A stretch of DNA of 64,000 nt from Eledone cirrhosa (Eukaryota), in contig OZ024740.1 in NCBI GenBank assembly GCA_964016885.1, positions 241,118,001 through 241,182,000 of the forward strand, in the 5' to 3' direction. This document shows positions 12,615 through 56,865 of the stretch, one piece after another. Both the position numbers and the translations under genes were made by a program. Under the pieces are notes generated by a model. It was not told the origin of the DNA, ran no database searches, and saw only the letters and a program-made list of their open reading frames with translations. Numbering within the stretch: position 1 is the first letter of the stretch; every line of letters starts with the position of its first letter.

Positions 12615-12810
12615 ACGTTATTCCGGGTTGAATCGGAGGTAACCACAGTAAGTAAGGTACTCAATACATTGCAGAGTATAAAAGTTTTAATATAGATGAG
12701 ATTCTACAGGACTAGAACTGTTTCATTCTTTAGAAATCATCAGGAATCAGCAGATTTCTGATGATTTCTAAAGAATGAAACAGTTCTAGTCCTGTAGAAT
12801 CTCATCTATA
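12615..12810. mobile_element. PLE-derived mini-element ending in a palindrome with two opposed hammerhead motifs
   Basis: Palindrome at 12691-12810; the same element occurs reversed at 17199-17395. Confidence 0.8.
12752..12802 (+). ncRNA. Type I hammerhead ribozyme (mirror copy at 12700-12748 on the minus strand)
   Basis: agattt-CTGATGA-tttc taaa gaat-GAAA-cag ttctagtc ctg-TA-gaatct. Stems I and III pair; stem II is weak. GUA cleavage predicted after 12796. Confidence 0.7.
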
Positions 12811-17202: not shown

Positions 17203-17393
17203 TTAATATAGATGAGATTCTACAGGACTAGAACTGTTTCATTCTTTAGAAATCATCAGGAATTCCTGATGATTTCTAAAGAATGAAACAGTTCTAGTCC
17301 TGTAGAATCTCATCTATATTAAAACTTTTATACTCTGCTATGTATTGAGTACCTTACTTACTGTGGTTACCTCCGATTCAACCCGGAATAACG

Positions 17394-19514: not shown

Positions 19515-22500
19515 AATGCTTTCTTTATTAACCACAAGGGTTGACATAAAGTATAACATTAAGGACAGGACAGGACAATACAGGACGGTACAAATGGGCA
19601 TTTCTGCATGCAAAGAAAAAATAATAACAAAGGAGATTAAAAGAAAAATGAAACAAAGGAAAATTCCCCAATAGGGAAGATTCTTCCGAGGATCATTCTG
19701 ACCACCAGGGCAAGATCCCTCTTCCAGTTTTCCACCTCCAATCTACAGGCGCATACTCAGAGCAGGAACATTCAGTCGGGCCATGCTTGCCTCTCTCATC
19801 CATCTTTCAACAAATTGCTAGGAAGGGAGCACTTCCCTCTCCACCCTGATTTTCCTTTTCAAATGAAATTTTTAAAAGATAATCAGAGCATCGCTGATTA
19901 TCAGCCCTTTCAAACGCATCCACCACACGACCTCTTTCGCCATGGCCACCAGACAGATAAAAACTGTCTGCCCTTCCCGGCTAAAGGAAAGTGGCAGGGC
20001 AATCCTCATGATGGACTCAGCTGATATCCGGATCCTTCCTACACGTGACAGCAGGTTTTCGACATAAACCCACAAGTCAGCAATGCTCGGACACTGGACG
20101 AGTGCATGCACGACGGTTTCGTCGCCCTGCGCGCATCTCGGACAGGCCCGGCTGACGGCACTTCCATGCCTGTAGAGTTTATCCCGAACTGGCAAAGCTA
20201 CCCGGTAGCACTGCCAGGCCAGAGATTTCTGGAAAGTGAAGTGCCTCGGGCCGAAAGTTCTCCCGAAGAGATTGGCTAGTTGATTTTCGTCGACGCCCAG
20301 AGTCTCCTCAAAGACATTGTCGCACTTCCTACCACTAACCCTCTATAGAACGCCAAGGTGAGAGTTTCCACCGATCGCATCGCTCAATTGGTCGAGGGCT
20401 GTAAGCGCTTGAAAACCTTCCAAGATCCAAGTACTCCCTCTTGGTCTTCGCTTGACCCTGGACTGCAGCTCCGTCAAGGAAACTAGCTGGGGAAACATGC
20501 ATCTAGCAAACGGTGACCACACCTGTTCACCGTCGAGGAATAGGTGGAGATGCCGTAGCTTGAGCATATGTTTGCGCATCATCAGCCACAACATGCCCAG
20601 CCCTCCACATAGCGGGTATTGACTACAGATGGACCGCCTGACTATCGGAGCGCATCCCTTCCACAAAAAGCGAAAGAGCAAACGCCCCAGCGGAATCAGG
20701 CGAGGCTTTGGACGGTCAGGCGGTAGTAGATGACGGACGCGATGTACGCGTTTGTCACCTCTCGGCGCATTTCTGCGTGAGAGAGGCCACCGTGTTCGTC
20801 ACCTCGTCCCAGAATTTTCTCGTCTGGAGGTCCGGACCGAACGAGACCCTAGCAATTTAACCGGTTCGTCCGTCAAACGCCCGACGACGCTGTTGAACGG
20901 AATGGACCTGCCTTTCCAGGTGCCGAGCCGCAGGCCCACCGACTTTTCCTGGTTAATCATTGCTCCTGTCACCACCTCGTATTCGCTTAGTGTAGTGCCA
21001 ATCGCCTCGATATGTTTGGCGCTCGACATCACTACGGTGACGTCGTCGGCATATGCTGACACGGTTCTCCCGCATCCTAGTTCGCGCGGGACTCCCCTCA
21101 ATGTCTCCAGTTTGTGCAGTAATGGCTCGAGAGTCAATACGTACAACAAAGACGAGGGGGGGGGGGATATTCTTGGCGGACCGAGTGCATGATATTGAAT
21201 GGTTCTGAAAGGTGACCGTTCACTCTCACCACAGAGCAGTTGTCGCTGTGCATGGCAGCGATCCAGCCTCTAAGACGGGCCCAAAGCCGCCCGCAGGACC
21301 GCTGCGAGATAACGATGGTCGACCCTATCGAAAGCTTTCGACTGATATAAATTGATCAATGCCCCACCTGCGCCAGATCGTTAGCTACCCTTTCCGCCTT
21401 TCCACGATGTATTTCATGGGTGGAGCTTGTCATGGATGGATCTGTCTTGAATGGCGCATGTATCTGTACCTCTCCCACCAGACCACCGACGACAAGCGCC
21501 TACCTCTTTGCTAAAACCTTGCCCAAAATCTTGAACTCTGCGTTTTCTATGTTGTTTCCCGTATCGTTTCCTTTCTCAGAAGCATCACCGCTCTTCGGCT
21601 CACAGAGCTGGGAATTCTCCTGTTCTGTTGCCAGTTGCAGTAGACCTCCGCCAAGAGCTCACCGAACAAATCTGGCATGTGTACGTAAAGCTCGTAGAGT
21701 AGACCATCTAAACTAGGTGATTCAGCCATCGTACAGTCAGTCACTGTCTCGCATACTTCAGCAGCTGTTATCACCTTTTCGCAATACTCTGCCTCAGTGG
21801 CCGAGAGCCGCGGCAGACCATCGAGAGAGACGCTAAAGTCCATCCTGCGATCCGACCCACCGCTGCCCCTGAACAGCTGAGCGAAATGTTGCTTAAAAGC
21901 CACACACGCATTTGCCCGGGTATGAATAACATGCGCCCGTCGAGGTCCTCCAAATACCGGAACGTGGCTTTGTTGCATCGACACGCCTCCGCTACTCAGG
22001 CCCATCCAACGGCTTTCGTCCCCTCGTATCTGAGAGCACGCACCCTAGCTCTGACAACGCATCCTTCGTGCTTTGCGTTGAAGAATTGGTCGAGGGCCAA
22101 TTTCGCCACAAGCACGTCGGTCGCGATACCTTTATTAAGCGCCTCGTTTAATTTTCTAACGAGTTCTCTCTCTGTTCTATTTTTCTCTATTGCGAACGAC
22201 TTACTAAACATAATGGATTCTATTCTATTCACTCTTTTCAGGGCGAACCACCATTTGTTGTTGGCGACTGGTCTCGTTAACGCCCGCTTAACTAGTTCTC
22301 TGATTCGGTCTCTGTAGACTTTGCGTACCGTGAGCGACGCGTTTAACTTCCATTTTAGCTTCCCTGTTTATAAAGCCTATCTACGTCGATCACACAGATC
22401 ACGAATTATTGTCCATGTCGTCGACTATCTTGAATTGTGGACAACCTATGCTAGACCTATCTATTTCCCTATAAAATACTCTATCTAGATACGATCTGGA

Positions 22501-31849: not shown

Positions 31850-32660
31850 GTCCGGTTGGCTGGTTGGTTCGATAACCGGATGGTTTTTTATATTTCGTCA
31901 CACATTCTGTGACCTCCTCAGTGACTGGGCTTTTATTTTATGTCCCTCTTTTGTTCTGTCCTACACCATATTGTTTTTGTGTTGTGTGCTGTTTGCTTAG
32001 TTTGCGCATGCGTTACATTAGGGTGGGTGTGTGCGTTTGTATTTATTTATTTATGTGTTTATTTACTTGTCACTAGTTGTTTGTTTGTTTTATCTGTGTG
32101 TGTCTGATTTCTTTTGTTAGTTTGGTTCTTGCGTGTGTCTCTGTCTTCATTTTGTCCTGAATTACTAGTTGTGATGTTACTATTCCGCTCATGTTTTCTA
32201 TTTATTTTGGTTGGAGTTCATTTATGTTTGTTGCCTCTGTGATTTGTCTGAGCATTGCATCTTTTCTGTGTGTGGATATACTTTTTATCTCTATGTTCTC
32301 TAATGTGCCCCTATATTCTATCTTGGCATGTTGGTGGAGTTTTTCCCATCCTGGAATTCTCGCCAGTTTTTATTTCTCCTTTCTCCTATGCTATGGGCTG
32401 CTTCACCTATGTATGTTATGTTCTTATTCCTACATTGGGTCTCAGTACATCTTATTCTGTATACTACGTTCCTAGTTTTGCAGTTAGTTTGCGGGCTTAG
32501 CTTGCAGACTATGCATTTCCTATCAGTGCAGGAGGTTCTTTGAAATAGTATAGTAACGTACTGTGTTTTTATTGGCATCATGACCCTCCCAAAGTATAAC
32601 AATATCTGTTTCAACGCATGTTTTCAGATAAGAAATCTTGCAACACAAATTCAAAGACTA
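31850..32660 (-). mobile_element. Penelope-like element 3' fragment (GIY-YIG + terminal repeat)
   Basis: NVVYRIRC...CRNKNITYIGE...SIGER; homologous to 55650-56457. Confidence 0.85.
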
Positions 32661-33688: not shown

Positions 33689-34868
33689 GACGTAAAATAA
33701 GAAAATTATAAAAATTAACTTACTTACTAAAATTTCACTCCAACTAATTAGTTTCTGAAAGGGAATAAACATGGTTTCCGAATGGAACGACATGGAGAAA
33801 TCCTTTCGTCATCAGGGAAGTCTATTCTCAGCTAAGTTCCCAGGCAATGCGTGGACACAGGGAACTTATACAAAAATAATTCAGTGGATGGAAAAAAGCA
33901 AAGCGTGGACTAAGTTCCAAGACATTGAAAAAATCACTGCCTACTTGGTCGGTGGCAAATTCAAAAGAATCAATCATGTGACATCGAGGTTAATCAGTGA
34001 GGAGGGGAGTGTTAAGAAGACAGCAGCCGAACCATGTTCCCTGTGTCCACGCATTGCCTGGGAACTTAGCTAAGAATAGACTTCCCTGATGACGAAAGGA
34101 TTTCTCCATGTTGTTCCATTCGGAAACCATGTTTATTCCCTTTCAGAAACTAATTAGTTGGAGTGAAATTTTAGTAAGTAAGTTAATTTTTATAATTTTC
34201 TTATTTTACGTCTTTCATATTATTGTTCTGCATCCGCTTGCATTGAACCACAAAGTTACTAAGACAAAACCTATATATTTGCTAGCATAGGTATGAATCT
34301 GTATATATATGTTGGTAGATATACTAATTCTTTATAATTATCTCCAAATTATTTTGTTGAGTAAAAATTTGCCAAAACTGCTGCTATAGTTCATAGTAAT
34401 GGTTCGGCTGCTGTCTCCTTAACACCCCACTCCTCACTGATTAACCTCGATGTCACGTGATTGATTCTTTTGAATTTGCCACCGACCAAGTAGGCAGTGA
34501 TTTTTTTCAGTGTCTTGGAATTTAGTTCCCGCTTGCTTTTTTCCATCCACTGAATTATTTTTGTATAAGTTCCCTGTGTCCACGCATTGCCTGGGAACTT
34601 AGCTGAGAATAGACTTCCCTGATGAGGAAAGGATTTCTCCATGTTGTTCCATTCGGAAACCATGGTTATTCCCTTTCAGAAACTAATTAGTTGGAGTGAA
34701 ATTTTAGTAAGTAAGTTAATTTTTATAATTTTCTTATTTTACGTCTTTCATATAATTGTTCTGCATCCCCTTGCATTGAACCACAAAGTTACTTAGACAA
34801 AACCTATATATTTGCTAGAATAGGTATGCATCTGTATATATATGTTGCTAGATATACTAATTCTTTAT
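33684..34868. mobile_element. PLE-type pseudo-LTR cluster with inverted and direct copies; family also at 30473-30670 and 41220-41650
   Basis: 33684-33865 is the reverse complement of 34036-34220; 34391-34750 is the reverse complement of 33684-34035. Degenerate CTGATGA..GAAACCATGGT motif; (TA)n flanks. Confidence 0.75.
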
Positions 34869-45682: not shown

Positions 45683-45753
<71 letters not shown>

Positions 45754-45992
45754 GTAAGTATGCATGTATACGTACATACATATATGTATACAGACGTACA
45801 GTAGCATGCACATATATATATATATATACATATATACATACATATGCATACAGGTACACATACATATATGCACGTATCAGTTTAGCGGCGCTAACGTCGC
45901 TTTGTTCGTTTGTAAACAAACTGAACAGCCTGAATTTATGCCATACGGTGTTAAGGCAACCACGTCACCTTTTTGTTCAACACTGACACAGG

Positions 45993-46037
45993 AACGATGT
46001 ACTAGTTTCAAGCTTGTTAGCTATCATCAGCACCGTT
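45993..46037 (-). ncRNA. Type I hammerhead ribozyme, unit 1
   Basis: aacggtg-CTGATGA-t agct aaca agct t-GAAA-ctag-TA-catcgtt; 7-bp stem I (one G:U) and palindromic ACTAGT stem III. Confidence 0.85.
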
Positions 46038-46458
46038 TACCCATCTGCCAGATAGTTGAACGTTCGAAAGTATATACTTTCCTTATGAAAATTAACGGCT
46101 GAGCAGCCTAATTTGCATATTGAGTGAGTTAAATCGGTCAGGCATACCGAAAACGATAAATTGAAACAAAATGAAAACGAAATTTCATTTCTCACTCTTA
46201 GTATGGCACTTACTTAAATGTAAGTATGCATGTATACGTACATACATATATGTATACAGACGTACAGTAGCATGCACATATATATATATATATACATATA
46301 TACATACATATGCATACAGGTACACATACATATATGCACGTATCAGTTTAGCGGCGCTAACGTCGCTTTGTTCGTTTGTAAACAAACTGAACAGCCTGAA
46401 TTTATGCCATACGGTGTTAAGGCAACCACGTCACCTTTTTGTTCAACACTGACACAGG

Positions 46459-46503
46459 AACGATGTACTAGTTTCAAGCTTGTTAGCTATCATCAGCACC
46501 GTT
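46459..46503 (-). ncRNA. Type I hammerhead ribozyme, unit 2
   Basis: Identical to unit 1, offset +466. Confidence 0.85.
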
Positions 46504-46924
46504 TACCCATCTGCCAGATAGTTGAACGTTCGAAAGTATATACTTTCCTTATGAAAATTAACGGCTGAGCAGCCTAATTTGCATATTGAGTGAGTTAAAT
46601 CGGTCAGGCATACCGAAAACGATAAATTGAAACAAAATGAAAACGAAATTTCATTTCTCACTCTTAGTATGGCACTTACTTAAATGTAAGTATGCATGTA
46701 TACGTACATACATATATGTATACAGACGTACAGTAGCATGCACATATATATATATATATACATATATACATACATATGCATACAGGTACACATACATATA
46801 TGCACGTATCAGTTTAGCGGCGCTAACGTCGCTTTGTTCGTTTGTAAACAAACTGAACAGCCTGAATTTATGCCATACGGTGTTAAGGCAACCACGTCAC
46901 CTTTTTGTTCAACACTGACACAGG

Positions 46925-46969
46925 AACGATGTACTAGTTTCAAGCTTGTTAGCTATCATCAGCACCGTT
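46925..46969 (-). ncRNA. Type I hammerhead ribozyme, unit 3
   Basis: Identical to unit 1, offset +932. Confidence 0.85.
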
Positions 46970-47633
46970 TACCCATCTGCCAGATAGTTGAACGTTCGAA
47001 AGTATATACTTTCCTTATGAAAATTAACGGCTGAGCAGCCTAATTTGCATATTGAGTGAGTTAAATCGGTCAGGCATACCGAAAACGATAAATTGAAACA
47101 AAATGAAAACGAAATTTCATTTCTCACTCTTAGTATGGCACTTACTTAAATGTAAGTATGCATGTATACGTACATACATATATGTATACAGACGTACAGT
47201 AGCATGCACATATATATATATATATACATATATACATACATATGCATACAGGTACACATACATATATGCACGTATCAGTTTAGCGGCGCTAACGTCGCTT
47301 TGTTCGTTTGTAAACAAACTGAACAGCCTGAATTTATGCCATACGGTGTTAAGGCAACCACGTCACCTTTTTGTTCAACACCGTATGGCATAAATTCAGG
47401 CTGTTCAGTTTGTTTACAAACGAACAAAGCGACGTTAGCGCCGCTAAACTGATACGTGCATATATGTATGTGTACCTGTATGCATATGTATGTATATATG
47501 TATATATATATATATATGTGCATGCTACTGTACGTCTGTATACATATATGTATGTACGTATACATGCATACTTACATTTAAGTAAGTGCCATACTAAGAG
47601 TGAGAAATGAAATTTCGTTTTCATTTTGTTTCA

Positions 47634-47679
<46 letters not shown>

Positions 47680-51269: not shown

Positions 51270-51700
51270 GTAAACCTTATGCATTCCTACAGTATTTTCA
51301 CCAAACTTAAGACATAGGTTACTTATGTACTCCGGATGGTCATGGGCACTTTCATTTTTACAGATATTGATTATAGGGCCTCCCGGCAGATAACCCCTTT
51401 AACCACTTTCTTGGAGTCGACTGAAGCACTGCAGTGCAATGCAACAAAACGTCATAACTTCTGGAGTTCGCAACCGATTTTCACAAAACTTGACACATGG
51501 GCTACGTTTGTTCTACAGATGAATGTGAACTCTCAGAATTGGCACATATTGAGTAGGGGATCCTTGGGGGCAGGAACCACCTTTTGGAAAGAGCCAATGA
51601 TTTTGTAAAAGTATAGTTTTCGAAGTAGCAGTGAAGTATTGACATAATGGTATACATAACTGCTATTTAATACCCGAGCAACGCCGGGTACCTCTGCTAG
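51270..51700 (+). mobile_element. Non-autonomous Helitron-like element
   Basis: Ends acccgagcaacgccgggt..CTAG|T. Confidence 0.75.
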
Positions 51701-51703
51701 TAT

Positions 51704-54387
51704 ATTATAAAATAACAGGAGGCTGGACTGGTGTAAATCCTTGAAAAGTTTATTATACTATGATCATTTCAATGACCGGGTTCAGTATGAATCCCGTGAC
51801 ATCATCAGGTATTAAAAATATAACAATGGAATATAACAGATAACATCCATGGGGCTGAAAATCAGAGACAAGACCTCAACGCTGTCATTTCTCTTTGACC
51901 GGGAGGTAGTAGCACATTATAAGCTTGCGCCCCCTCACCAGATGGTCATAAGTAGACTTAATAATCAACACTTGAGGGCGGCCGACCGAGGTAGAAGCTG
52001 CTAAATGGTCAGTCGTGCTCTTGCCTCTGATTTTCAGCCCCATGGATTTTATCTGTTATATTCTTTTGTTATATTCTGAATACCTGATGATGTCACCGGA
52101 TTCATACTGAACCCGGTCATTGAAATGATCATAGTATAATAATCCTTTCAAGGATTTACACCAGTCCAGCCTCCTGTTATTTTATAATAATTAACTCCGT
52201 ACTCGCACCACCAACTACACAAACGAAGACGGATGAGTTGTATTACGTTGAGTGCTCTCCATAATATTACATCGAGGTTGACCATACGCAATGACCAATT
52301 CTATCCAGTGGTGAACCAACAAACCTAAATAAATAATGCTCCAGAATTGTCGAGCGCTCTCAGATGTAATAATGAACAGCGGCACTAACGCCAGTGTACA
52401 GCTATCGCCAGAATGGGACTGACTAATCTACTTACCATTCGGATGTTGGCTGCTTTGAGCCACCTGGTCCACTGCTGCTTCCCTGTCGGGAATATTCAGA
52501 CTCCAACAGACCTCATAGATTCCTAAAAAAATGTCTACGTATTCTACTAAAACTTGTAGCGTATTGACTGAATTCTCTATCATATACTTCAGGGCCTTTG
52601 GGATTCACATTGAATATTAAGACTCGAATATACACTAAGTATCACCTGATACCATTCCTTCTCTTCCATCCTCTATATCTATATGTATAACCTTGTATTA
52701 TCCAACTGCCCCTTGATCTATATTGTATTTCCCCTGTGTGTTTATTTCTTCGATGTGTTCTTATATACTTCCGTTTTACTCCATGCATCACCACCCTAGT
52801 TATGACTGCATTTTATTTATGTATTTTTATTTATGTATTTTGCTTATTATTCTTTTTATTTATGTATTTATTTACTCGCTTTACTCTCATTATATACTAT
52901 TCATTGTGCTCATTAACACACGACCCGAGAATATTCCTCTCTGTATCCTTATATCTGTTTATCTTTATTCACTCCCCCTACCCACCCAAGAACCACACTA
53001 CATATAACCCGGACTAACTGGGGACTAAATATAGTCTATTTGCGCATTTCATCGGGTTTTACCGCTTTCAACCTCACATCACAGGTGTGAATAAATAATA
53101 ATGGTTTGGTAACACGCGTGATTCGACGGATGTGGCGGTTTTCCCGACTGCACACCAGGCGCTCGGGTAGATCAAGCTTCCTTGAGTGCTTGGAAAAATA
53201 AATTTCCCCTTCTTTCAGGTAAACGAAATTACTCGGAACGGATGCTTCGCCCTAGGGCCCTGTCAGACTTCGAACCCACCGCGTCGTCGGCTCTGACCGC
53301 CAAATAGTATCTTTAAATTCTAGGCTTAATCATAACTATTAGCTGTATCATGCCTCCTTCTGCTAGCACTTAACTAAATCCCCCTCCTGTGTGAATTACT
53401 AGTAATCGTTTGGTATATACGATGGCCCAGCCGGCGGTGGCGGACTCCCCTCTAACACACCCGACACCTAAGACAGTTACATTCCTGGAGTGCTCGAAAA
53501 AATTAATTTCCTTTTCTTTCGCTAGACGATATTACACGGAACGGCTGACACGTAGTCAAGGAGGGCTGGCCGGGGTTCTGCAGTCGTCGCTGGTTATTGA
53601 CCGCTAAGCAAGGGCTTAATCTTTACTCTATATCCTACCCTGAAAATTTATCGTGACTATCTATAATACACTTAAACTTTTCCATAAAAGTCTCCTTCTG
53701 TAAATTCTTTAACTAAATCTCACAACCCAAGCCCTAAACCTTATTTTTCTAATTTCATCCTATAACTCTAAACATAAGTTTAACGTTTCTAATTGTTAAT
53801 CAAAATGTCTGTCCATACATGATAGCACATAGACGCCCACTATATATGTCTTTGTTGAAGATATATATTCTTTAAAAAAACATTTTTCGCGGCAATTTCG
53901 AGCATGTATGATCAGCTTGATTGAGGCATGACCTCAACGCTGACATTTCTCTTTGACGGTGAGGTAGTAGCACATTATAAGCTTGCGCCCCCTCACCAGA
54001 TGGTCATAAGTATACTTAATAATCAACACTTGAGGGCGGCCGACCGGGGTAGAAGCTGCTAAATGGTCGGTCGTCCTCTTGTCTCTGATTTTCAGCCCAA
54101 TGGATTTTATCTGTTATATTCCTTTCTTATATTTTGAATACCTGATGATGTCACCGGGTTCAGTATGAATCCAGTCATTGAAATGATCATAGCATAATAA
54201 ACCTTTTAACGATTTACACCAGTCCAACCTCCTGTTATTTTATAATAATTAACCCCGTACTCGCACCACCAACTAAACAAACGAAGACGGGTGAGTTGCA
54301 TTACGTTGAGTGAGTGCTCTCCATAATATTACATCGAGGTTGACCATACGGAATGACCAGTTCTATCCAGTGGTGAACCAACTAACC

Positions 54388-54391
<4 letters not shown>
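51704..54391 (+). mobile_element. Non-coding PLE-type element: inverted partial repeat plus two ~460-bp direct repeats, three hammerheads in total
   Basis: 51872-52330 matches 53930-54391; 51704-51872 is the reverse complement of 52020-52188; ends in (TA)n. Confidence 0.85.
52080..52137 (+). ncRNA. Type I hammerhead ribozyme (copies at 51755-51812 - and 54138-54195 +)
   Basis: atac-CTGATGA-tgtcaccgg...ccggtcatt-GAAA-tgatca-TA-gtat; palindromic stem III. Confidence 0.75.
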
Positions 54392-54469
<78 letters not shown>

Positions 54470-55650: not shown

Positions 55651-56457
55651 GAGGTTCAGGAAACAAGCATACAAACTAGAAACATAGTATATAGCATAAG
55701 ATGTGCCGAAGGACAATGTAAATATAACAATATAGTGTACATAGGTGTGACAGTTCGTAGTATAGGAGAACGATTAAATGAACACTGGCGAGAGCTTCAA
55801 GATAGAAAAGAATCATCAATACTCCACCAACATGCTAAAATAGAACATAAGGGCAAATTAGAGAACATAGAAATAAAAATAAAATCTACACACAGAAAAG
55901 ACGCAATGTTTAGACAAATCACAGAGGTAATAAACATAAATGAACTCCAAGCAAAATTAAATAGAAAACATGAATGGAATAGCAACATCACAACTTACAA
56001 TTAAGGACAACATGAAAACACACACACGTAGAACAAACAACCAACTAGTAACATGTAAATAAACAAATAAATAAACAAATAAAAACACACGCAGACCCCC
56101 GGATCTAACACATGCGCAAACTAAGCACATAACACACACAAAAACAATATGGCGTAGGACAGAACAAAGTAGAGGCACAAAACAAAGAAAAGAATCCCCA
56201 GTCACTGAAGAGGTCACAGAATGTGGGACGAAAGAACTTTGACAATATATGAACAACCGTCCGGTTGTGGAACCAACCAACCAACCAACCGGAAATTTAT
56301 AAATTTTTTAATTTATAATTTAATTTATAATACATTGGAGTGAAACCAACTGGTGCGTGTGTTTCTTATTGGCAACATGACCCTCCCAAAGTATAACAAT
56401 ATCGGTTTCAACACACGTTTTCAGATAAAGAATCTTGCTAAACAAATTCAGAAACGA
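55650..56457 (+). mobile_element. Penelope-like 3' fragment: GIY-YIG endonuclease plus terminal repeat
   Basis: NIVYSIRC...C...YIGVTVRSIGERLNEH...S.LHQH...RQITE..I......LN.K.EW; HHR-like core CTGAAGA..GAAA at ~56205. Confidence 0.88.
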
Positions 56458-56511
56458 TATATATATATATATTAAAGGTTTCGCTCAGACATAGTTGTAT
56501 ACATATAAGTA

Positions 56512-56865
56512 TGTGAATTTCGTGTATCTAATGATATACAAAACATTTGCTAAGCCGGAGTGAAAATATTAATCCTATTTTCAAGCAGAGCTGGCTTGTA
56601 CATCATATGCAAATTAAGCTAATAAACCCATCTATATAGGTGAAAAAACTATATACTTTCGCCTATTTCAAATTCCACCAGGGAGCAGGGAAAGGACTGT
56701 CCTGATGACACCAGAGCCAGAAACGCATTTATTGTTGTCCCCCGCTGCTTCTGCTGGAATCCGCTAGGCGGCACTAACCGTCACCTTTTTAATATTTAGA
56801 ACTAGAAGGCTTTCCAAATGTTTATTCGTAAACATACTGTATATCATTAGATATACGAAATTCAC
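56512..56865 (+). mobile_element. Short element with ~28-bp inverted ends, an octamer+TATA module and a hammerhead core
   Basis: gtgaatttcgtgtatctaatgatataca is inverted at 56838-56865; ATGCAAAT at 56607, TATATACTTTCG at 56650, CTGATGA at 56702, GAAA at 56720. Confidence 0.6.

Follow-up and report, generated by a model that had tools for sequence, protein, structure and literature searches.

Short hammerhead repeats of Eledone cirrhosa carry a promoter-like module resembling that of host small-RNA genes

Two hammerhead repeats and their relatives

The window, that is the whole stretch of 64,000 nucleotides analysed here (64 kb; Eledone cirrhosa contig OZ024740.1, positions 241,118,001 to 241,182,000), contains an array of short ribozyme-bearing repeats, termed family A, and a decayed copy of a second such repeat, termed family B. 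Their features are as follows; coordinates refer to the window.

45749..47381, minus strand: family A array, non-LTR retrozyme-like, 3.5 identical 466-bp units with (TA)n flanks (from the sequence and tandem-repeat analysis)
47377..47639, plus strand: inverted, 5'-truncated partial A copy, head-to-head with the array (Penelope-type insertion anatomy)
46108..46119, minus strand: 12-mer TATGCAAATTAG, an extended octamer, as in the host U6, MRP and tRNA-Sec promoters; again at +466 and +932
46099..46102, minus strand: TCAG, PSE-like core, 26 nt ahead of TATA (the position in host Pol II snRNA genes)
46066..46081, minus strand: palindrome with TATA box (first T at 46076); RNA hairpin
46046, minus strand: predicted transcription start, TATA+30, C/AG (here and below, the slash precedes the start base)
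45993..46037, minus strand: minimal type I hammerhead, predicted cut after GTA (46000)
56475..56545, minus strand: inverted family B piece ahead of the direct copy, read from the sequence; ends approximate
56550..56865, plus strand: decayed family B copy (unit of about 330-340 bp, about 80% identity among copies); ends approximate
56606..56617, plus strand: 12-mer of the B copy, TATGCAAATTAA, one mismatch
56650..56657, plus strand: TATA box in a hairpin loop; predicted start 56680
56696..56738, plus strand: hammerhead of the B copy, decayed; intact core but broken stems II and III

Elsewhere, the window holds a 525-aa open frame with an MFS transporter match (PF07690; 58259-59836, minus strand) and a zf-RVT fragment (19872-20342, minus strand).

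In family A, the octamer ATGCAAAT (46111-46118) is followed on the minus strand after 34 nt by the TATA block TATATACTTTCG (46065-46076) and after a further 34 nt by the ribozyme core CTGATGA (46024-46030); the octamer recurs likewise in the two upstream units (46577-46584 and 47043-47050). The family B copy on the plus strand reads ATGCAAAT (56607-56614), 35 nt, TATATACTTTCG (56650-56661), 40 nt, CTGATGA (56702-56708). Re-reading of the sequence reproduced every coordinate and spacer that the first-pass annotation had given for both repeats, as well as the 16-bp palindrome holding the TATA at 46066-46081. Across the window TATATACTTTCG occurs four times, always within the module, and ATGCAAAT eleven times, the octamer being part of a 12-mer, TATGCWAATKAG. 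The identity of the two repeats over the 12 letters of the TATA block is partly luck, because 27 of 30 family B copies have T instead of C there (counted by eye).

The family A array has a period of 466 with 3.5 copies at 100% matches, and each of its three complete units carries the module. Its hammerhead comprises a 7-bp stem I, the CTGATGA core, a stem II with a U-U closing pair and a palindromic 6-nt stem III. Rfam model HH9 scores it at 18.5 bits (E 0.036; gathering cut-off 52), and at gathering score Rfam returned no match in the window, this hammerhead included; weak Rfam snoRNA matches in the window were discarded. Stem I pairing is preserved in the commonest variants seen across 28 distinct A copies, and the third core base is variable. 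No ORF of 150 aa or more occurs across the array and GC content is about 0.35; the unit thus has the anatomy of a non-LTR retrozyme, i.e. short tandem units, noncoding and of low GC, each with a type I hammerhead.

The module recurs far above chance expectation. Its full pattern has 11,828 matches across the genome (3.0 Gb) against none for a reversed-pattern control, and among 100 pattern matches listed, 99 belong to family A and one to family C. The 12-mer occurs 39,144 times (942 in the control), is followed by CTGANGA 79-108 nt on in 8,530 cases (control: 1; this distance window leaves out family A) and is accompanied by TATAWAW at U6 spacing in 502 cases (control: 33). At least seven hammerhead repeat families have the 12-mer, families C to H having been found by searching for it, and short ribozyme repeats with host-type motifs ahead of the ribozyme amount to about 20,000 genome copies. 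Other repeats begin with the 12-mer or a one-mismatch form of it and show no hammerhead in the stretch read.

The idea that all hammerheads of this genome carry the module was ruled out. A sample of 600 kb, made up of 60 pieces of 10 kb chosen at round coordinates, contained 27 hammerhead-like motifs in 10 clusters as compared to none in shuffles, and the 12-mer accompanied four of the 27 (two of the 10 clusters), its background being 2.3% of windows. Hammerheads beside 20 GIY-YIG loci of Penelope type lack the 12-mer at module distance; of the GIY-YIG ORFs tested, four of six have an RT, and apart from apparent nested insertions the repeats share no homology with the 20 loci, among which no partner element was identified. 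We regard the module as the mark of a group of short retrozymes rather than of hammerheads generally. Within the window, a terminal repeat that contains a hammerhead but no 12-mer is present three times at 51700-54400, once inverted; the same hammerhead flanks an RT+GIY-YIG ORF elsewhere in the genome, which marks this segment as a Penelope-like remnant. Further hammerhead-like families without the module, several as inverted pairs, lie at 12721-12780, 17237-17288, 33775-34659, 31893-31921 and 56205-56233.

The two repeats had been described as otherwise unrelated, with little other similarity. This has to be revised: a 16-copy profile of family B, whose units are circularly permuted with a period of 330-340 bp, can be aligned with family A (E 2e-8) along about 170 nt that begin upstream of the octamer and extend to GAAA, and family H, whose promoter block resembles that of B, matches family A at 67% over 210 columns. 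Owing to this profile alignment and the bridging family H, families A and B can be assigned to one lineage as distant relatives. Family C is a close relative of family B (profile E 1e-47). Family F is a young 466-bp relative of family A in arrays of about 30 units, with its TATA changed to CATATAAC inside an 11-bp hairpin; it is 65% alike to A over 350 columns, the 12-mer is intact in both, and its stem I differs from that of A yet pairs fully. Outside the 12-mer and AT-rich tracts, family D cannot be aligned with A, B, C or F, yet it holds its TATA 47 nt from the octamer in 10 of 12 scored copies; the module is therefore common to at least two lineages.

Host small-RNA promoters and the geometry of the repeats

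Upstream of the host genes for U6 (three promoter types), U6atac (one mismatch), RNase MRP and tRNA-Sec (two), the octamer lies at -76 to -79 within TATGSWAATKAG, and these seven Pol III promoter types have a TATA at -30/-31, giving octamer-to-TATA distances of 46, 47, 48, 47, 47, 48 and 48, respectively. The earlier proposal that the module consists of elements of external-promoter small-RNA genes thus holds, as its TATA and its 12-mer, which we take to be a POU-class binding consensus, are shared with U6, U6atac, MRP and tRNA-Sec. Dispersed copies of U6 (14) and U6atac (11) lack the 12-mer upstream, as do six U6 cluster copies with a different upstream region; these tandem-cluster copies keep the TATA and have an unrelated, SINE-like region where the 12-mer would be.

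At the octamer position, none of 24 Pol II variants (U1, U2, U3, U4, U4atac, U5, U11, U12) has the 12-mer. Instead they show AATTA near -89, YCAK at -54 to -58 (22/24) and usually a TATA-like box near -30, with TCAGT at -55 to -58 in U1, U2, U4 and U5. The distance from core to TATA in host Pol II snRNA genes is 25-28 in 21 of 22 cases, where the core was searched at -60 to -53 only and TATA was set to -30 where no match was found. RNase P and 7SK, which lack a 12-mer at -77, have TCAGT 32 and 33 nt ahead of TATA. TCAG(T) therefore behaves as a PSE core, since its distance to TATA separates Pol II genes (25-28) from Pol III genes (32-33). A PSE-like core is absent from U4atac and one U2 variant, and 12-mer and core are both absent at these positions from SRP (four shown) and vault (two) genes. 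Two predictions made on the way failed: 7SK has no 12-mer at -77 and carries the TCAGT instead, and U4atac lacks a TCAG at -56. A Pol II minus Pol III matrix score was set aside, its Pol III matrix comprising seven sequences and its leave-out rule being flawed.

Start bases differ as well: Pol II genes begin with Y/A at 8 of 11 Rfam-defined starts, the 12-mer Pol III genes with T/G in seven of seven. Host Pol III genes terminate in T5+. Besides their TATA-like box around -30, most Pol II snRNA genes have a 3' element like AAAWYAGAMT 10-20 nt past the gene; in unit A, inspection by eye for a 3' box of the host type gave a single 9/11 match, which is near chance. One tandem cluster holds two vault RNA variants, which have a TATA at about -31 and end in T5-T6. 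External Pol III promoters of two kinds coexist in this genome, one with TCAGT (RNase P, 7SK) and one with the 12-mer (U6, U6atac, MRP, tRNA-Sec). As a by-product, these comparisons provide a first sketch of the snRNA promoter code here (12-mer or TCAGT plus TATA, with spacing separating Pol II from Pol III), which is useful for guide-RNA expression.

The repeats fall into two geometries. The octamer-to-TATA distance is 42 in family A, 43 in family B and 42-43 throughout A, B, C, F and H; families D and E, older hammerhead families, have 47-48, i.e. exact U6 geometry. B-type subfamilies vary the spacer and keep 43 nt in 68 of 100 among the matches listed, 91 lying within 42-44 (by eye). TCAG precedes TATA by 26 nt in family A and 27 nt in family B, which is a modest match to the host core (5.3 bits in A, mean 3.6 in B; host leave-one-out 2.7-14.4). 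In family B it occupies the best-scoring position in 14 of 14 copies; the score is negative in families C and F and in the window's B copy, from which the core is missing. TATA+30 falls on Y/AG in 23/25 A, 12/24 B, 3/3 H, 4/5 C and 7/8 F scored copies (F anchored by hand; unscored: three A, one B, one H, one C, no F), and on Y/G in 6/12 copies of D and 4/9 of E. The agreement of A, B, C, F and H in spacing and start base does not amount to separate observations, given that these families are related. The module predicts starts at 46046 (A) and 56680 (B), in line with the earlier expectation that transcription would begin just before stem I.

Judged by host classes, families A and B have the 12-mer but lie outside the U6 class, which is characterised by an octamer-to-TATA distance of 46-48 and a T/G start. 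The host Pol II arrangement, TCAG(T) 25-28 nt before a TATA-like box with a Y/A start, is present in A and most B copies, albeit at a weak score; the repeats do not have its upstream part, carrying the 12-mer at about -73 and not AATTA near -89 without a proximal octamer. This combination of a U6-type 12-mer with a U1-type core has no exact host model, because near +1 the 12-mer occurs only in host Pol III genes. The comparison of the spacer with the PSE of host genes, which the first-pass annotation had suggested, yielded a TCAG core in A and most B copies, but at a distance of 26-27 and not the 32-33 of RNase P and 7SK.

A probable built-in promoter and the alternatives

Taken together, the sequence comparisons make it probable that the promoter-like module is functional. 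We lean, with some reserve, towards regarding the repeats as non-LTR retrozymes with an internalised promoter of the host snRNA type, which in families A and B would probably be read by Pol II. Since host small-RNA motifs lie inside the repeat, the repeats likely take a built-in promoter along when copied.

A real promoter read by Pol III according to the U6/H1 model, as first proposed, or by both polymerases as in H1, appears unlikely to us, though it deserves serious attention. It would account for the proximal 12-mer, found in seven host Pol III promoter types and in none of the 24 Pol II variants, and for families D and E, which combine exact U6 spacing with mostly Y/G starts; moreover, T runs do not exceed T4 in the window's A unit and in most B copies, which is compatible with Pol III, and promoters of type 3, H1 among them, are loaded by both polymerases (PMC11340601). 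However, the spacing of 42-43 in A and B is outside the host range (46-48 in 7/7), TCAG stands 26-27 nt from TATA as compared to 32-33 in RNase P and 7SK, the start is Y/AG, and sense-strand runs of T5+ occur in 18 of 18 distinct F units and six of nine distinct A units. In the two flagged families the 12-mer and TATA are host-like; spacing, TCAG position and start base follow the host's snRNA genes of the Pol II class, and T5+ runs occur in related young units. In family D, 7 of 13 copies place a T5-T10 run directly behind the ribozyme, though the units (about 340 bp) are circularly permuted, which a simple Pol III model leaves unexplained; with U6 geometry and yet a T-run, this family indicates that geometry does not map simply onto polymerase. 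A depletion of T-runs on the sense strand, as for Pol III read-through, was ruled out by F, D and part of A.

It seems improbable that the motifs are kept as RNA features, i.e. as hairpins or protein sites in a circular RNA, with transcription coming by read-through from neighbouring promoters. TATA does lie at a hairpin tip in most families, with differing stems, eight of 16 copies give local folds with z between -2.7 and -6.6 (the values being weak in the remaining eight, A included), and the RNA predicted for A and F pairs both the 12-mer and TATA, the former in circular folds; a monomer fold z of -7.8 was set aside, as it probably reflects mostly the TA tract. This would, however, leave unexplained the letter-for-letter match to host DNA promoters on the right strand at a fixed TATA distance, as well as the two spacing classes mirroring host Pol II and Pol III genes, and in host promoters these motifs come with no strong hairpin (z 1.1 to -2.0). 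In the predicted folds, the varied stems around TATA are a sign of a joint DNA and RNA constraint. More improbable still is a relic, left from the capture by an ancestor of sequence upstream of a small-RNA gene and now carried passively. Such an origin suits the common ancestry of A, B, C, F and H, and within young family A the motifs are barely more constant than the spacer (column agreement 0.99-1.0 vs 0.96), and the copies compared had been chosen by those very motifs. Against passive carriage, the 12-mer is intact in A and F despite about 65% overall likeness, the unrelated family D keeps 12-mer and TATA at host spacing, and B-type subfamilies alter the spacer yet hold 43 nt.

The promoter-bearing retrozymes that we favour may have internalised both flavours of host snRNA promoter, an extension that is possible but doubtful. 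In this reading, D and E would have U6 geometry and be read by Pol III, while the expanding families A, B, C, F and H would carry a U6-type POU site on a Pol II-spaced core, a 4-5 bp polymerase switch allowing read-through of long multimers. In flies, Pol II and Pol III promoters differ by 4 bp in spacing. If this extension were true, the roughly 39,000 dispersed 12-mer sites would form a network of mobile snRNA-type promoters, on which the choice of polymerase by spacing could be studied as in a natural test set.

Proposed copying of the units and comparison with known systems

For the favoured retrozymes with an internal promoter, a course of events can be proposed in which a POU-type factor would bind the 12-mer and SNAPc-like and TBP complexes would bind TCAG and TATA. 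Initiation would fall 30 nt past the first T of TATA, 9 nt ahead of stem I, and the polymerase would read across successive units, from which the hammerheads would excise monomers that circularise; cleavage would probably occur as dimers because stem III is palindromic. TATA at the tip of an RNA hairpin could satisfy DNA and RNA constraints together. A Penelope-like reverse transcriptase might then prime at a TA-rich target, run round the circle and write multimers back. As each monomer would contain the promoter of the next unit, every unit of the multimer would have a promoter before its ribozyme.

Among 18 independent family A insertions, seven are head-to-head inversions (by eye), and insertions lie at TA-rich sites. 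The 14 outer 3' ends of inverted insertions fall on three unit positions, 306-307 (the edge of the TA tract), 370-374 and 424-429, and 5' ends are scattered (by eye); array 5' ends of family A show no concentration at either the predicted start or the predicted cut site. Units of one array can have a private variant in common. This anatomy is compatible with a Penelope-like enzyme whose copying is target-primed and follows either a circle or a multimer (PMC8557442; 10.64898/2026.07.22.740005). In multi-unit arrays copying continues past the cut site, as needed for inclusion of the promoter when priming occurs within the unit. The module lies inside a tandem, circularly permuted hammerhead unit, an arrangement that agrees with the earlier suggestion that the promoter would be copied with the RNA. 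Penelope-like elements have hammerheads, partial tandems, inverted 5'-truncated copies and microsatellite targets (PMC8557442); the repeats resemble them in hammerheads, tandems, inverted 5'-truncated copies and TA-rich targets, but have no ORF, and hammerheads beside GIY-YIG ORFs are without the 12-mer.

Non-LTR retrozymes have been defined without an endogenous promoter (Cervera and de la Pena 2020, PMC7229834), and the main texts of that paper and of Li, Clavereau and Pollet 2026 (10.64898/2026.07.22.740005), in their accessible portions, do not treat one. The present repeats share with non-LTR retrozymes the tandem type I hammerhead units and low GC, a circular RNA and Penelope-driven copying being presumed for the latter (PMC7229834; 10.64898/2026.07.22.740005), whereas the 466-bp unit exceeds the quoted range of 150-450 bp. 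In these two sources the cause of the abundant transcription of animal retrozymes is left open, with newt and schistosome satellites as sole leads. Promoters of plant LTR retrozymes are reportedly treated in PMC9695139 and PMC12029980, the passages of PMC2837043 examined contain nothing on promoters, and in the literature searched, which mostly excluded subscription papers, there was no account of a promoter module in mollusc or other invertebrate retrozymes. Compact vertebrate H1 promoters combine an octamer near the PSE and TATA with dual polymerase loading (PMC11340601), and insect promoters have a conserved PSEA-TATA spacing (PMC1761439). These, however, belong to host genes, and the module described here to mobile units.

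The newt satellite 2 promoter is said to include an octamer, as Coats, Zhang and Epstein reportedly found in 1994, and that of the schistosome SM-alpha satellite is, reportedly after work by Ferbeyre in 1998, of tRNA type. SM-alpha, a hammerhead satellite, has its own Pol III promoter, and the snRNA promoter inside newt satellite 2 is used by Pol II (PMC2220036). Unlike in SM-alpha, the elements here are upstream-type snRNA motifs. The general idea that a repeat propagates its own promoter thus has a precedent in newt satellite 2, but one that is read by Pol II and not Pol III. With a putative promoter matched element by element to host snRNA-class genes, animal retrozyme transcription becomes testable with a 110-bp cassette, and a route is seen by which a tandem or circular retroelement can keep an upstream-type promoter that ordinary SINEs lose when copied. 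Like newt satellite 2, the repeats are tandem hammerhead units with a, here predicted, internal snRNA-type promoter; they differ from it in residing in an invertebrate genome, in comprising at least seven families, in having a TATA box and the 12-mer beside a PSE-like core, and in forming two geometry classes, one mirroring the Pol II genes of the host and the other its Pol III genes.
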